From Oscillospiraceae bacterium (GTDB taxonomy: Bacteria > Bacillota > Clostridia > Oscillospirales > SIG627), in assembly GCA_015064635.1 (NCBI GenBank), contig SVRV01000008.1, positions 12,770-76,769 of the forward strand: 64,000 nucleotides of DNA, given 5' to 3'. The translations under genes and the position numbers were made by a program. Positions 3,030 through 8,376 of this stretch are shown piece by piece; position 1 is the stretch's first letter; each line of letters begins with the position of its first letter. The notes under the pieces were generated by a model. It was not told the origin of the DNA. It worked only from the letters and a program-made list of their open reading frames with translations, and searched no databases.

Positions 3030-5432
3030 TTATTTAACCACTATGTTGACTATCTTGCCGGGAACGTAGATTTCCTTAACAATTGTCTTGCCCTCGAAGA
3101 AGGGAGTGAAACGCTCGTCGCTCTTTACAAGTCCAAGCACTGTATCCTTGTCAGCATCTGCGGCAACGGTTATTGTACCCTTGAGCTTGCCGAGTACCTG
3201 AACAGCGATTTCGATTGTATCGTCAACACACTTTGCCTCATCCCATTCGGGCCACTTGGTAGCAGAGCAAAGTCCTTCTCCGCCAAGTCTTTCCCAAAGC
3301 TCTTCACATATGTGAGGTGCGAAGGGACAAAGAATTGTAACGAGAGTCTTAAGCTCGCAGGTGGTTATCTTTCCTACACTGTATATTTCGTTGATAAGTG
3401 TCATCATTGCCGCAATAGCGGTGTTGAACTTCATCTCTTCAATGTCAAGGCTTACCTTCTTCACGGTCTTGTGGAAGAGAGATTCAAGCTCGGGTGTTAC
3501 GCCGCAACCCTTTGCCATAGCACCGAGTGCTTCAACACGGTCAAGGAATCTCTTACAGCCCTTGATGCCGTTAACGTCCCAGGGAGCCGCCGCACCGTAG
3601 TCACCCATAAAGAGGATATAGGTACGAAGAACGTCTGCACCGTACTGGTCAACCACCTCGTTGGGGTCAACAACGTTTCCTCTGGACTTGGACATCTTTT
3701 CACCGTCGGGACCGAGAATAAGTCCCTGCGCTGTTCTCTTTGCATAGGGCTCTTCGGTGTTTGCCTCGCCGATGTCATAGAGGAACTTGTGCCAGAAACG
3801 TGAGTAGATCATATGACGGGTAACATGCTCCATACCGCCATTGTACCAGTCAACGGGCATCCAGTACTTCATCTTTTCGGGATCTGCTATGCACTTGTCG
3901 TTGTTGGGGTCAATGTAACGGAGGAAGTACCATGATGAGCCTGCCCACTGCGGCATTGTATCGGTTTCACGCTTTGCATCCTTGCCACATACAGGGCACT
4001 TGCAGTTTACAAATTCGGGAATCTTTGCAAGAGGAGATTCGCCACCCTCACCGGGCTCGAAGTTCTTTACGTCGGGGAGACGGAGAGGAAGCTCTTCCTC
4101 GGGTACGGGTACCATTCCGCAGTGCTCACAGTGAACGATGGGAATAGGCTCGCCCCAATATCTCTGACGGTTGAATGCCCAGTCCTTCATCTTGTACTGA
4201 ACACCCTCTTCACCGATGCCTTTTTCTTCAAGGTACTCAATCATACGCTTGATGGAGTCCTTCTTGTTGTCAAAGCCGTTGAGGAAGTCGGAGTTAACCA
4301 TTTCGCCGTCGCCTGTGTAGGCTTCAACCGAGATGTCACCGCCCTTGATAACCTCAATTATATCAATACCGAATTTCTTTGCAAATTCAAAGTCACGCTC
4401 GTCATGTGCGGGTACCGCCATAATAGCACCGGTACCGTAGCCCATCATTACGTAGTCTGCAACGTAAATGGGGATCTCCTTGCCGTTCAAGGGGTTGATA
4501 CCGCAAATTCCCTTGATTTCAACACCTGTCTTGTCCTTGTTGAGCTGTGTACGCTGGAATTCTGTCTTCTTCGCACATTCTTCCTTGTATGCTTCAAGCT
4601 CGTCAAAGTTTGTTATCTTGTCACGGCAACGCTCAAGCATGGGATGCTCGGGAGCAATTACCATAAATGTAACGCCGAAAAGTGTGTCGGGACGTGTTGT
4701 ATATATGCGGAGTGTCTCATCGGCACCCTTAACGCTGAAGTTTACAAATGCACCTGTGGATTTACCTATCCAGTTTACCTGCTGCTGCTTTACCTGGGGA
4801 AGGTAATCCACAGTTTCAAGACCTTCAAGAAGTCTGTCAGCATACTTTGTGATGCGGAGGTACCAAACGTCCTTTGACTTCTGAACTATATCGTTGTGAC
4901 AGATATCGCACTTACCGCCCTGAGAGTCCTCGTTTGAAAGAACTACCTTACAGTGAGGGCAGTAGTTTACAAGAGCTGTGTCACGGAAGGCAAGTCCCTT
5001 CTTGAAAAGCTCAAGGAATATGTGCTGAGTCCATCTGTAATATTTTTCATCTGTTGTATCAATTGTTCTTGTCCAGTCAAAGGAAAATCCTACACGCTTC
5101 AGCTGGTTTGTGAACTTCTCGATGTTGGCATCCGTAAGTATTCTGGGGTGTGTATTGAACTTGATTGCGGAGTTTTCGGTAGGAAGTCCGAAAGCGTCAA
5201 AGCCGATGGGGAAAAGGACATTGTAGCCCTGCATTCTCTTTTTACGGCTGACAACCTCAAGTCCCGAATATGCCTTTATGTGTCCGACATGCATTCCCGA
5301 GCCGCTGGGGTAGGGGAATTCTACAAGTCCGAAGAATTTAGGCTTGTCGGAGTTGTCTTGTGCTTCAAATACATGGGCATCTTCCCATGCTTTTTGCCAT
5401 TTTGATTCGATTTGTTTAAAGTCGTATGCCAT
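3030..5432 (-). CDS. leuS: Leucyl-tRNA synthetase
   Basis: 800 aa. Class I HIGH motif (PYPSGSGMHVGHIKAY) and KMSKS motif (GEKMSKSRGN), with the overall LeuS architecture. GGAG lies upstream of the ATG. Confidence 0.97.
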   Translation of the reverse strand: MAYDFKQIESKWQKAWEDAHVFEAQDNSDKPKFFGLVEFPYPSGSGMHVGHIKAYSGLEVVSRKKRMQGYNVLFPIGFDAFGLPTENSAIKFNTHPRILTDANIEKFTNQLKRVGFSFDWTRTIDTTDEKYYRWTQHIFLELFKKGLAFRDTALVNYCPHCKVVLSNEDSQGGKCDICHNDIVQKSKDVWYLRITKYADRLLEGLETVDYLPQVKQQQVNWIGKSTGAFVNFSVKGADETLRIYTTRPDTLFGVTFMVIAPEHPMLERCRDKITNFDELEAYKEECAKKTEFQRTQLNKDKTGVEIKGICGINPLNGKEIPIYVADYVMMGYGTGAIMAVPAHDERDFEFAKKFGIDIIEVIKGGDISVEAYTGDGEMVNSDFLNGFDNKKDSIKRMIEYLEEKGIGEEGVQYKMKDWAFNRQRYWGEPIPIVHCEHCGMVPVPEEELPLRLPDVKNFEPGEGGESPLAKIPEFVNCKCPVCGKDAKRETDTMPQWAGSSWYFLRYIDPNNDKCIADPEKMKYWMPVDWYNGGMEHVTRHMIYSRFWHKFLYDIGEANTEEPYAKRTAQGLILGPDGEKMSKSRGNVVDPNEVVDQYGADVLRTYILFMGDYGAAAPWDVNGIKGCKRFLDRVEALGAMAKGCGVTPELESLFHKTVKKVSLDIEEMKFNTAIAAMMTLINEIYSVGKITTCELKTLVTILCPFAPHICEELWERLGGEGLCSATKWPEWDEAKCVDDTIEIAVQVLGKLKGTITVAADADKDTVLGLVKSDERFTPFFEGKTIVKEIYVPGKIVNIVVK

Positions 5433-5690
5433 GGTATATCTCCTTTATGTTATGTTATCTTACGGTGTGTCTTTTGGGTGAAAACCGAAAATGAAATGGT
5501 TTTATATTTTCGGCTGTGTTCACTCCTACGCTTTTGTAGTGCGAACAAATCACTCCCAAAAGCATTTTTTATATTGTTGAAAACCTTTGGTTTTCTCCAT
5601 TAGTGAAAATTTCATTTTCTTCGTCCCTCCCTCGCACTGCTGTACATAAGTACAGCGACGGCTTCGGGATGAACGATTTTCCCTCCAAAA

Positions 5691-5733
5691 CTCCCACCTT
5701 TTGGGGTTTCGGGCACGGTGTTATTTTTGGGTG
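5691..5733. repeat. 43-bp perfect direct repeat, copy 1
   Basis: CTCCCACCTTTTGGGGTTTCGGGCACGGTGTTATTTTTGGGTG. It is identical to 5927-5969. The 3' part (ACGGTGT..TTTTGGGTGAAAACCGAAA) recurs a third time at 5462-5490. Confidence 0.9.
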
Positions 5734-5782
5734 AAAACCGAAACAATGCACAGTGCAAGGTGCACAATGCACAATGAAGGAA

Positions 5783-5922
5783 GATTTTGCTTTAGCAAAA
5801 TCAACCTTAACGTTTGCAAAGCAAACATTTCACGTGACTTTAGTCACATTTCACTCACCGAAGGTGAATTTCACGTTTTGACAACGTCAAAACATTTCAC
5901 TGCATAACGCACAGCGTTATGC
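5783..5922. repeat. Chain of six perfect hairpins joined by an invariant ATTTCAC linker
   Basis: The hairpins are: H1 GATTTTGC-TTTA-GCAAAATC (5783-5802); H2 GTTTGC-AAA-GCAAAC (5812-5826); H3 GTGACT-TT-AGTCAC (5834-5847); H4 TCACC-GAA-GGTGA (5855-5867); H5 GTTTTGAC-AAC-GTCAAAAC (5875-5893); H6 GCATAACGC-ACA-GCGTTATGC (5902-5922). ATTTCAC occurs at 5827, 5848, 5868 and 5894. Confidence 0.85.
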
Positions 5923-5926
5923 TCTG

Positions 5927-5969
5927 CTCCCACCTTTTGGGGTTTCGGGCACGGTGTTATTTTTGGGTG
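5927..5969. repeat. 43-bp perfect direct repeat, copy 2
   Basis: Identical to 5691-5733 and 236 bp downstream of copy 1. Confidence 0.9.
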
Positions 5970-6037
5970 TAAATAATTGATAGTTGAAAATTGATAATTT
6001 AAGGAAGATTTTGCGAAAGCAAAATCAACAATAATTG

Positions 6038-6121
6038 TGCATTATGCATTATGCATCGTGCATTGTGCATCGTGCATCGTGCATCGTGCATCGTGCATCG
6101 TGCATCGTGCATTATGCATTC
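6038..6121. repeat. Heptanucleotide tandem repeat (TGCATCG)n, 12 units
   Basis: The units read TGCATTA x2, TGCATCG, TGCATTG, TGCATCG x6, TGCATTA, TGCATTC. The period is 7, so it is not codon-compatible. It begins 10 nt 3' of the rsfS stop codon. A related TGCAnnn x4 patch lies at 5747-5774. Confidence 0.9.
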
Positions 6122-6131
6122 AATAAGGCTG

Positions 6132-6494
6132 TTATGCCAAGAGTGTACTGATATCTATATCCTCTGCATCTGCCCAGAGCTTTTCAAGGTTGAACTTTGT
6201 TCTGGCATCTCTGCTGAATATGTGCACGATAACGCTGTCGTAGTCGATTACCACCCAGTCAGCACCGCCTCTGCCTTCACGTCTTGTAGAGGGGTATCCT
6301 GCTTCGCCAAGCTTGAATTCAACTTCGTCCGCAAGGGCATTTATCTGTGTGTTGTTGCTTCCGCAGGCTATTACAAAATAGTCTGCTATTACTGTCTGAT
6401 TTCCTACATCAAGCATCTTGATGTTAAAGGCTTTTTTGTCGTCAAGTGTTTTTACAACCTTGTCGGCTATTTCTTTTGCTGTTATTTTATCCAT
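6132..6494 (-). CDS. rsfS: Ribosomal silencing factor RsfS (iojap family)
   Basis: 120 aa. DYFVIACGSNNTQINALADEV...WVVIDYDSVIVHIF is typical of RsfS/YbeB. Confidence 0.9.
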   Translation of the reverse strand: MDKITAKEIADKVVKTLDDKKAFNIKMLDVGNQTVIADYFVIACGSNNTQINALADEVEFKLGEAGYPSTRREGRGGADWVVIDYDSVIVHIFSRDARTKFNLEKLWADAEDIDISTLLA

Positions 6495-6513
6495 TTATTT
6501 GTTCCTTTCGGGA

Positions 6514-8376
6514 TTATGTTGGCTCGTCTGTTACCTCTTCGGGTATGTATGGAGTGTCTTCTTCCGGCTCTGTCGGCTCGGTAGGATTGGTTTCCGGAAC
6601 ATTTTCTGTCGGTTCATCCGTTGTAGGCTCACCCTCGATAGGCTCACCCTCAATCGGCTCACCCTCAATAGGGTCGCCCTCAATAGGTTCACCCTCAATA
6701 GGTTCACCCTCAATAGGTTCACCCTCAATAGGCTCACCCTCAATAGGTTCACCCTCAATAGGCTCGCCCTCAATCGGTTCACCCTCAATAGGCTCACCTT
6801 CAATCGGTTCACCTTCAATAGGTTCACCCTCAATGGGTTCACCTTCAATAGGCTCACCCTCAACAGGCTCACCCTCAACAGGCTCTCCTTCAATAGGTTC
6901 ACCCTCGATAGGTTCACCCTCAACAGGCTCACCTTCAATAGGTTCACCTTCAATAGGTTCACCCTCCGAAGGAGTGTCCGGCTCTGTTTGAGGAGGAGTT
7001 GACGGGGTCGAAGGTGTTGAAGGTCTCGAAGGTCTCGATGAGCTTCCACCTGCAACACTTATTTTTGGAGGCTCTGTGTTGATGTCGCTTGCAGTATATC
7101 CGTCGGTATTGACGGTTGAGTAAGCTGAGCGGTATGGCTGTGACATTGTGATGTCACCGGAGTTTACCTTTTTGTTGTAAAGATTGAATGCCTTGTTTAC
7201 AATTTCAAGATTTTCGTCTATATAGAGTGAGTAGTACGATGCACCGCTTGATGAGAAATATCCTTCGCCTTGGGCAGTATAGAAGGTGATATTATCTGTG
7301 GAGAATTTACCGAAATCCACCTTCTTGACGAGTCCCATAAGGTCTGTCAGTGACATTCCGGTGGTTGTATACTCTATAAGAAGAGATGCAACGTTTGTCA
7401 GGCTGTCAAGTGAAAACCACTCGGAGGAGGTAAGCTTTCTTACCAGTGCGGCAAGGAATATCTTCTGTGCATCCACACGTCCCAGATCACCCAGACGGTA
7501 AGTGTTACGGAATCTTACGAACTGCTCCGACTGATTTCCGTTAAGCGTCTGCATTCCGGGGTAAAGGTTTATGTGGAGATTCTGTTCATTGTCGTTGTAG
7601 TACATTCTGAACGGAACATCCACCTCGACGCCGCCGATGGCATCAATTATCTTTACGAAACCGTTAAGGTCAATCATAAAGTAATTGTCAATGGTAATTC
7701 CAAAGGTTGATTCCACAGTGGATTCAAGGTATTTGAGGGATTCTTGTGAAGCCTCTGAGCGTGACAATCCGTTTCGGATGTTACGGCTGTATGCAAAGGC
7801 GTAAATCGCATTGATACGCTTGCTTGAATTCTTATTTATGGGGTCATCCACGTAGGTGTCACGTGGAATCTGAAGGACGTTCATCTTTTGAGTTGAGGTG
7901 TCAAAATTCACAACCATTATAACGTCGGTGTTTGAGCCGACTCTGTCTTTGCCCACTACCATAACGTTATATGCGTTCTTGTTACGGACTACACTGTTTC
8001 CGGCACCACCCTTTAATACTCCTATACCGAAGAAGTCCTCAAGGGTGTATACAGTTCCGATAGTACGCTCTCGGTTCATCCTTTCGGCATTAACAAAGGT
8101 ATATGCCCGTGTATTACCGAAGCTTTTTGTCAAATTGTTTTCAAAGGGTGTATGGTTCTCGTCCATGGAAAAATCAGCTACCAGATACCATATACCAAGC
8201 ACTGCCGCAATCAGCAAAATAAAGGACAAAAGACCAACGAGAACTCCGATAAGAATTTTCTTTTTCAGACTCATTTTCTTCTTTGTCTCGTTTTTTGTAC
8301 TTTCTTTTTTGGGGGATATATCCCTACGTGCTCTCATTCTGACATTGGCACTTGTTTGATTGTTCGTTTTCTTCAT
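6514..8376 (-). CDS. LytR-CpsA-Psr (LCP) family protein with a C-terminal acidic Pro-rich repeat tail
   Basis: 620 aa. It has a basic N-terminus, a single TM segment ([25 protein letters not shown]), and an LCP core ([22 protein letters not shown]...[11 protein letters not shown]). The tail carries 23 x GEP(I/V)E. Confidence 0.88.
6626..6970 (-). repeat. 15-bp in-frame tandem repeat (23 units) encoding (GEPIE)n within the LCP gene
   Basis: GGYTCACCCTCRATA-type units are visible on the plus strand from 6626 to 6970. They translate on the minus strand as [15 protein letters not shown]. Confidence 0.9.

Follow-up and report, generated by a model that had tools for sequence, protein, structure and literature searches.

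Introduction

Two kinds of described element share features with the one studied here. The repetitive extragenic palindromes (REP) and bacterial interspersed mosaic elements (BIME), and likewise the BOX elements, are extragenic, multi-copy mosaics of palindromic units which often sit at gene 3' ends or within an operon and, being co-transcribed, can have a stabilising effect on the upstream mRNA. In type III toxin-antitoxin systems, exemplified by ToxI and CptI, tandem structured units are joined by a constant A-rich single-stranded site that is a possible nuclease cleavage site. We have analysed a 64-kb window (the whole stretch of DNA under study, 64,000 nucleotides of an Oscillospiraceae bacterium) in which a chain of perfect hairpins joined by an invariant heptamer lies between rsfS and leuS, and we found that this chain is a copy of Gut-1 (Rfam RF01706). 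Gut-1 was described by Weinberg et al. in 2010 from 43 representatives with covariation, all of them from human-gut environmental sequence (PMC2864571). As published, it comprises three hairpins on anonymous human-gut metagenome reads, with no organism, genomic context or function attached, whereas the chain in the window comprises six (PMC2864571). Our literature search on Gut-1, RF01706 and the heptamer found no later paper beyond the 2010 description.

A first-pass annotation of the window, made from the sequence, had known of no described element with this organisation. RF01706 has it, and has been in print since 2010; the organisation of the chain is not new and belongs to an already catalogued family. 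What goes beyond the published description is the taxonomic assignment, the six-hairpin form, the insertion, inversion and deletion at one gene junction and the repeat-like behaviour of the family, together with its geometry at tRNA flanks, its PF05635 neighbourhood and a doubt on which strand, if any, acts as RNA.

Results

Both a reading of the sequence and a separate scan for palindromes (perfect, with stems of 5 or longer and loops of 3 to 5) gave six perfect stem-loops set back to back at 5783-5922 of the plus strand: H1 (core stem-loop at 5783-5802, stem 8, loop 4), H2 (5812-5826, stem 6, loop 3), H3 (5834-5847, stem 5, loop 4), H4 (5855-5867, stem 5, with a loop of 3, UUC in the minus-strand and GAA in the plus-strand reading), H5 (5875-5893, stem 8, loop 3) and H6 (5902-5922, stem 9, loop 3), the last being the rsfS-proximal 5' end of the chain in the minus-strand sense. 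The core of H1 is lengthened by AAGG/CCTT into a long terminal hairpin (5777-5808) with no U-run after it. Four identical copies of ATTTCAC, which is GUGAAAU on the minus strand, start at 5827, 5848, 5868 and 5894 of the plus strand, covering 5827-5900 with spacings of 21, 20 and 26; the last linker (5803-5811, minus strand) is a variant, GUUAAGG in the minus-strand sense, and other arrays likewise close with GTTRRGG. The six hairpins and four identical heptamers thus stand where the first-pass annotation had put them, but the loops are of 3-4 nt rather than 2-4 nt, and its reading of H4 as a cUUCGg tetraloop gives way to a C(UUC)G triloop in the palindrome register, while Rfam models a CUUCG pentaloop. 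A hairpin cluster of more than four members occurs only once in the 64-kb window, at 5783-5922, and 50 shuffles gave no cluster larger than three; in addition, ATTTCAC is found only 13 times in the 64 kb of this strand, and four of 13 fell within 80 nt in none of 200,000 random placements. On the strength of both the shuffles and the random placements, a chance origin of the chain was rejected.

The identity of the chain was given by Rfam. Positions 5822-5902 of the minus strand matched Gut-1 with 67.1 bits, the gathering score being 50 (E 3.4e-11 over the full window), along model positions 1-77 of 77, and Gut-1 was the single Rfam family above threshold both in the region and in the window as a whole; with E allowed up to 10, the interval 5000-6600 yielded nothing beyond Gut-1 except noise-level matches. 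The matched segment holds the four GUGAAAU linkers with hairpins H5, H4 and H3, and the printed consensus reads UGAAAU-hairpin-GUGAAAU-hairpin(CUUCG)-GUGAAAU-hairpin-GUGAAAU, with the same (G)UGAAAU linkers around three short hairpins and the CUUCG loop in the middle one. The sequence and structure features of the family were found: a score above the curated threshold, a full-length match, three hairpins between (G)UGAAAU and variable, covarying stems. The chain exceeds the model at both ends, with H6 ahead of the first linker, and with H2 (which falls outside the Rfam model), GUUAAGG and the long H1 past the last one. The hairpin chain is a Gut-1 copy with an extra hairpin at either flank, and a longer terminal hairpin closes it.

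To place this copy within its family, we relied on a pattern scan of one genome per species, which returned at least 120 loci, about 80 of them genuine arrays and the rest ordinary tandem repeats of unrelated phyla, and on statistics over about 110 arrays among the matches listed, drawn from metagenome-assembled genomes (MAGs) that belong to gut Clostridia or bear the label Akkermansia, Bacteroidaceae or Phascolarctobacterium. The hosts are mostly uncultured gut Clostridia of humans and ruminants (Oscillospiraceae, Acutalibacteraceae, Ruminococcaceae, Christensenellaceae). At least 30 other arrays pass the Rfam threshold, and above-threshold matches also lie on IMG/VR contigs and in MAGs labelled Bacteroidaceae, Akkermansiaceae, Akkermansia and Phascolarctobacterium (L009, L013, L118, L123); the labels of the matching MAGs span four phyla, reflecting either horizontal spread or binning contamination. 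A phage-integrase-family gene lies about 950 nt upstream of the array in L118. A phage origin of the family was considered and set aside, as the IMG/VR matches lie 0.3-1 kb from contig ends beside tRNA genes and probably represent the host flanks of predicted proviruses.

The stems of the family are palindromic and free in sequence. Among the matches listed, 180 of the 239 distinct inter-linker spacers are perfect palindromes, as against 12 of 4780 shuffles, and 94% of positions in these 239 spacers are Watson-Crick in the palindrome register, with linker spacings of 18-26 bp. Stems are unrelated between units and between most copies, near-identity being limited to recent paralogues within one MAG; a hairpin identical to H2, GTTTGCTTTGCAAAC, is present in the L111 array. 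The first-pass view of the chain as a constant short linker with variable palindromic inserts was borne out, being the very layout of the Rfam Gut-1 consensus and of about 110 further arrays with unrelated stems. Repeat behaviour is most visible in the MAG JAZTZP, which carries seven arrays in two near-identical subfamilies, all at contig ends; several are joined directly to TAA stops that belong to different genes, and one stem differs between copies by symmetric changes. Over the arrays listed, a true contig end lies within 250 nt of 28 of 105, where 4.9 would be expected (about 6-fold).

We then read the orthologous gene junction in relatives of the window's lineage, tracing the more distant RsfS homologues to their source contigs. 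Contigs with an identical RsfS come in two forms, one the same as the window and the other lacking 215 nt. In the short form, represented by L003 (ERZ28019037 k141_113954, 743-1222), H6 begins inside the rsfS stop codon, the stop lying within the 5' arm of H6; the spacer, minus its 215 nt, runs into uxaC (glucuronate isomerase) and not leuS, with a distal 240 nt only about 80% identical to the window, and this contig suggests recombination between two element copies in that genome. Beyond this lineage the junction is short: rsfS and leuS are 15 nt apart in a relative with 88% RsfS identity, 13 nt in L267 (83%), 13 nt in L271 (83%) and 39 nt in a relative at 82%, a typical short-spacer junction reading TAA-GAGGTGCAATACA-ATG. 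In the relative at 95%, a 13-nt spacer is followed by a truncated unannotated gene that starts with ATGGCATACGATTTT, as leuS does, and in the relative at 92% other genes come after rsfS. None of these relatives (95, 92, 88, 83 for L267, 83 for L271, and 82%) has any of the spacer repeats. The orthologous site is empty in L263, L264, L267, L268 and L271 and filled in the window and in L265, a polymorphism of presence and absence.

The filled site of L265/L266 (an 83% RsfS relative, in two independent assemblies) has a 441-nt spacer that aligns end to end with the plus strand of the window at 78% identity, and because it is colinear with that strand, the block lies the other way round in L265, flanked by the same pair of genes. 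In its hairpin chain all stems differ, loops of GAA or ATA persist on that strand, and the linkers have drifted jointly to ATATAAC and ATATCAC; the array is no longer detected by Rfam. A metagenome scan with RsfS returned only distant relatives (at most 55% identity), none with arrays after rsfS. The block has been gained, lost and flipped at the DNA level and is not a conserved part of rsfS-leuS expression: it is a lineage-specific, non-coding, mosaic insertion of about 0.47-0.7 kb that split an otherwise tight rsfS-leuS junction (13-39 nt). The candidate roles named at first pass were a scaffold or decoy for a GUGAAAU-binding protein, a stabiliser or processing array, or iterons; any of these may apply, but a role specific to rsfS and leuS is unsupported, the block being missing or inverted in close relatives.

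The first-pass annotation had reckoned that a match to a multi-copy repeat family with no positional specificity would be fatal to its idea. The array is indeed absent from the relatives' rsfS-leuS junction, inverted in one of them, and dispersed in many copies elsewhere, yet a positional preference exists: the family favours positions 3' of transcription units and is partly biased towards their sense. Among the matches listed, 28 arrays start at most 100 nt after a co-oriented stop codon, and some fill short intra-operon spacers. Co-orientation with the upstream gene stands at 38:16 among solo arrays and at 16:6 among those within tandem gene pairs, both counts being approximate as the neighbour genes were called from crude open reading frames, some of them spurious. 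A tRNA gene lies within 400 nt in about 30 of 87 listed loci, the adjacent array having the same orientation 24:2, usually after a terminator and followed by a second, inverted array. At about 10 loci an inverted array pair is followed at once by an extended -10 promoter and a gene of PF05635, the 23S rRNA intervening-sequence or four-helix-bundle family (Avd-like, about 115 aa). Inverted pairs placed between a tRNA gene with a terminator on one side and the promoter or ribosome-binding site of the PF05635 gene on the other were seen in L012, L038, L048, L094, L106, L052, L047, L110 and L028 and, in the same setting, in the IMG/VR loci L219, L223, L237 and L244; the stem GAAATAAATCC/GGATTTATTTC brackets the first array of such pairs. 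No PF05635 gene lies in the window. One array, in the Akkermansiaceae MAG L013, lies 217 nt from a Y1 transposase gene (IS200-like, PF01797, 76 bits, 7303-7842). An association with REP-associated tyrosine transposases (RAYT) or IS200 did not emerge, a Y1_Tnp gene lying near the array in 1 of about 100 (L013 only) in a search of the array loci, not of whole genomes.

Folding was strong on either strand. The minus-strand RNA of the window folds at -54.5 kcal/mol (z -6.6) and the plus strand at -44.6, both far below shuffles, and the plus strand as single-stranded DNA also folds well (z -7.0). On the GUGAAAU strand only, each hairpin is closed at its base by an A-U and a U.G pair supplied by the conserved linker ends, with GAA left between the helices. 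Loops on that strand include 45 of C(TTC)G, 26 of C(TGC)G and 10 of C(TAC)G, and those on the ATTTCAC strand are C(GAA)G, C(GCA)G and C(GTA)G, with GTAA, GCAA and GAAA as tetraloops. C(GNA)G and GNRA are classic extra-stable loops of DNA and RNA hairpins, C(GNA)G being a very stable loop of DNA mini-hairpins; C(UNC)G triloops have, to our knowledge, no extra-stable status. A choice of strand by loop type was rejected, because a c(UNC)g loop on one strand is a c(GNA)g loop on the other and both are plausible. We conclude that the hairpins matter as structure.

The chain is only one part of the spacer that holds it. In the window, rsfS (ribosome silencing factor, 6132-6494, minus strand) and leuS (leucine-tRNA ligase, 3030-5432, minus strand) come after nadD/yqeK and an LCP-family gene, a Firmicute arrangement, and the whole spacer (5433-6131, 699 nt) is a mosaic non-coding insertion. 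A 215-nt sub-module at 5923-6137 is present in the window and in L001, L002, L004 and L005 and absent from L003, L006 and L007; it is edged by a 7-nt direct repeat, GCATAAC in the minus-strand sense, and contains a heptamer array, a second copy of H1 and the first copy of a 47-nt repeat. Both reading and palindrome scan found the H1 stem again at 6007-6026, with a GAAA loop. The recurrence itself, with its changed loop, was noted correctly at first pass and was taken there as what selection on structure would produce; since it falls within a 53-nt duplicated module of which the second copy is missing from sister contigs, we read it as a duplication and not as evidence of structural selection.

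Three tandem arrays of heptamers accompany the chain, GTGCATC (about 11 copies, 6034-6120, plus strand), ACAATGC (about 5 copies, 5743-5776, plus strand) and ATAATTG (about 4 copies, 5973-5999), the first two being mutually inverted with 68-nt arms that are 79% complementary. Heptamer-only arrays, including ones with GTGAAAT units, were also seen in other Clostridia MAGs (L017, L024); the hairpin-free one of L024, an inverted pair with GTGAAAT, lies beside a PF05635 homologue. The 47-nt repeat (CTCCCACCTTTTGGGG...TTTTTGGGTG; CACCCAAAAATAACACCGTGCCCGAAACCCCAAAAGGTGGGAG in the minus sense) lies at 5691-5737, with a second copy 98% identical at 5927-5973 and a partial third at 5462-5490, the latter directly upstream of the leuS ribosome-binding site. 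Among all retrieved loci, this repeat, the extended H1 and the leuS-proximal module are confined to contigs of the window's lineage. The best-conserved core of the insertion (5603-5707) is about 93% identical to the inverted L265 copy and includes a hairpin at 5639-5656 (GCTGTAC-ATAA-GTACAGC) with compensatory changes in L003 and L265; Rfam gives no match for it, and it could be the functional core of the element. Two CCCUCC motifs lie in this core on the plus strand.

A scan of the spacer for promoters and terminators gave nothing above shuffle expectation. None of the six hairpins of the chain (0/6) precedes a U-run, and an intrinsic terminator was rejected on this ground; two minus-strand terminator-like matches within 5746-5916 are off-register, overlapping H6 and the heptamers, and the count of three for the region is close to the shuffle mean of 1.2. 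No T-box was matched in 5000-6600 with E up to 10, nor at the gathering threshold across the whole window. Because no T-box precedes leuS and the spacers of relatives are so short, the rsfS operon transcript appears to serve for the translation of leuS in this group, with no T-box control of the kind usual in Firmicutes. On the minus strand, the LCP-family gene at 6514-8376 contains a 15-nt tandem repeat of 22.9 copies at 6624-6966, which encodes a pentapeptide repeat; homologues are annotated with an Extensin_1 match.

Discussion

On balance, we favour the explanation that the chain is a Gut-1 copy within a lineage-specific mosaic insertion, that Gut-1 is a dispersed, multi-copy, horizontally spread intergenic repeat, and that it would serve as a generic RNA barrier or platform and not as a regulator of leuS. 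The family looks like a dispersed intergenic repeat rather than a dedicated regulator of rsfS or leuS, and what is seen at this locus speaks against a role peculiar to it and in favour of a mobile mosaic repeat. The repeat lands beside gene and tRNA-gene 3' ends, in most cases with GUGAAAU read in the direction of the transcription unit upstream, and we surmise that the array in the window would be co-transcribed with rsfS and leuS. As RNA, it would form a row of short, very stable hairpins, their bases closed by the A-U and U.G pairs of the linkers, with GAA between the helices. Such a row may act as a generic structural barrier that blocks 3'-to-5' exonucleases; alternatively, the repeated single-stranded GAA/GUGAAAU sites may be offered to an endonuclease or a binding protein, making the array a processing platform. 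Either action is modelled on the REP/BIME or BOX elements of other bacteria and would entail no specific control of leuS.

Several observations weigh against this explanation, as evidenced by: 1) the search for terminal inverted repeats, a target duplication or a transposase gave nothing clear, and the 64-kb window holds only one Gut-1 copy; 2) about 30% of the solo arrays are antisense to their neighbours, and the L265 array is antisense to both flanking genes, which tells against a strictly cis-acting RNA because such an element is expected in sense; 3) a large number of arrays are set between a terminator and the promoter that follows, and little RNA would be expected there; 4) in more than 1300 stem pairs, the internal positions that are not Watson-Crick comprise 7 G:U, 11 A:C and 5 other mismatches, an absence of G:U preference that would be unusual if selection acted on RNA from that strand; and 5) the C(GNA)G and C(GNRA)G loops would be no less in keeping with a folded ATTTCAC strand or with folded single-stranded DNA. 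With regard to the RNA strand, the sense bias of tRNA-adjacent arrays and of upstream genes, together with the one-strand A-U/U.G closure, stands against the absence of G:U preference, the GNA/GNRA loops of the opposite strand, the inverted L265 block and the copies between terminator and promoter.

Some of these observations lend credit to an element that works at the DNA level, which we consider a minority explanation, improbable on present evidence though the best of the alternatives. Here the heptamers would be protein sites, or else cruciforms or hairpins of single-stranded DNA, formed by the palindromes, would act as recognition or mobility signals, for instance for an HUH/Y1-type enzyme, or as operators for the PF05635 protein, of which the gene is often a neighbour; the typing of Gut-1 as a small RNA (sRNA) in Rfam would then be wrong. 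The lack of any wobble preference, with 75% of palindromes perfect, is consistent with such an element, as are the strongly strand-asymmetric loops (C(GNA)G and GNRA-like on the ATTTCAC strand), the inverted pairs that part a terminator from the extended -10 promoter belonging to a PF05635 gene, the hairpin-free GTGAAAT array of L024 next to a PF05635 homologue, the tolerance of the block for either orientation between the same genes and the array close to an IS200-like Y1 transposase gene. On the other hand, a linker spacing that ranges over 18-26 bp is poor for phased DNA binding; the closure by A-U and U.G is found only on the GUGAAAU strand, of which the RNA is about 10 kcal/mol more stable than that of the other strand; the orientation of the arrays relative to upstream units, both tRNAs and genes, is biased; and the Y1 transposase is near so few of the arrays, with no PF05635 gene in the window at all. 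Going one step further, we speculate, with as little confidence, that Gut-1 arrays are not sRNA genes but the gut-anaerobe counterpart of REP/BIME, with a conserved linker and free palindromes capped by GNA/GNRA loops that would fold in single-stranded DNA or in read-through RNA, would spread between gut phyla and settle directionally at the 3' flanks of tRNA and protein genes, in many cases as inverted pairs beside a PF05635 gene, the product of which is a possible reader of the heptamer.

Somewhat harder to sustain, and in our opinion doubtful, is a trans-acting sRNA or protein sponge, in which a nuclease or RNA-binding protein would be titrated by a number of single-stranded GUGAAAU (or GAA) sites set between inert hairpins; it corresponds to the scaffold or decoy of the first-pass annotation and to the 'sRNA' label in Rfam. 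Its appeal lies in a heptamer that hardly varies where the stems change freely, across many genomes and nominal phyla, in a layout like that of the multi-site sponges CsrB and RsmZ, and in the canonical terminator hairpin after the L103 array. The copy in the window is bracketed by neither promoter nor terminator, however, and many copies start 2-50 nt past a stop codon or fill short operon spacers, the inverted pairs leaving no room for promoters; in addition, the array is absent from close relatives, and in L265 the linkers have drifted together to ATATAAC. Finally, a cis-regulatory leader or attenuator of leuS that replaces a T-box, or a regulator of rsfS-leuS coupling, is effectively excluded, in spite of the sense orientation of the array upstream of leuS and the lack of a T-box in the spacer, as relatives have spacers of 13-39 nt and lack a leader altogether, the block is inverted in L265 and precedes uxaC in L003, and arrays elsewhere flank unrelated genes.

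Returning to Gut-1 as a dispersed intergenic repeat, the 699-nt spacer of the window is an insertion and not a conserved leader, and an orphan "sRNA" that has stood in Rfam since 2010 on the basis of anonymous gut reads is now placed in identifiable MAGs. That the family breaks MAG assemblies is of practical interest. Mobility, the stability or processing of mRNA 3' ends and a factor that binds the heptamer are sensible questions to ask of these arrays; a regulator of leuS or a classic trans-acting sRNA is not.

The family can be compared with known systems in turn. With CRISPR it shares a regular alternation of constant and variable segments, but in Gut-1 the constant part is an unstructured 7 nt, the variable part is palindromic, arrays have 3-5 units and there are no cas genes; the constant and variable roles are reversed, and the first-pass annotation had likewise called the layout the inverse of CRISPR. 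A CRISPR-like array was rejected for want of repeated units or associated genes, the Rfam similarity to CRISPR-DR being at noise level (21 bits, E 2.8). Type III toxin-antitoxin loci likewise have a row of structured units parted by a constant A-rich single-stranded site; units of the ToxI type are identical and are followed by a terminator and a toxin gene, whereas Gut-1 units are unrelated. Such an array was rejected for the window because its units are dissimilar and its flanks are rsfS and leuS, with no ToxN-, CptN- or AbiEii-like toxin gene.

The miniature inverted-repeat transposable elements, such as Correia and RUP, are also short non-coding insertions, present or absent in close relatives and found in both orientations. 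In the window's lineage a possible 5-bp repeat, CATAA, occurs at both junctions, though not in L265, and the insertion ends have only a weak inverted match of 8-9 nt, ACGSTGTG; the terminal inverted repeats and target duplication are unconvincing, and the interior is a mosaic of sub-repeats rather than a deleted insertion sequence. A likeness is also seen to the REP/BIME of enterobacteria and the BOX of Streptococcus pneumoniae. There the palindrome sequence itself is conserved, so that one palindromic unit recurs within a genome, whereas in Gut-1 such a unit was not found, the palindromes being unrelated and only the 7-nt linker conserved; nor does a RAYT-type transposase regularly lie near the arrays, in contrast to REP/BIME. 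What the Gut-1 family shares with these elements is its mosaic structure, its signals of copy number and its placement at 3' flanks, being extragenic, multi-copy and located at gene 3' ends or within operons.

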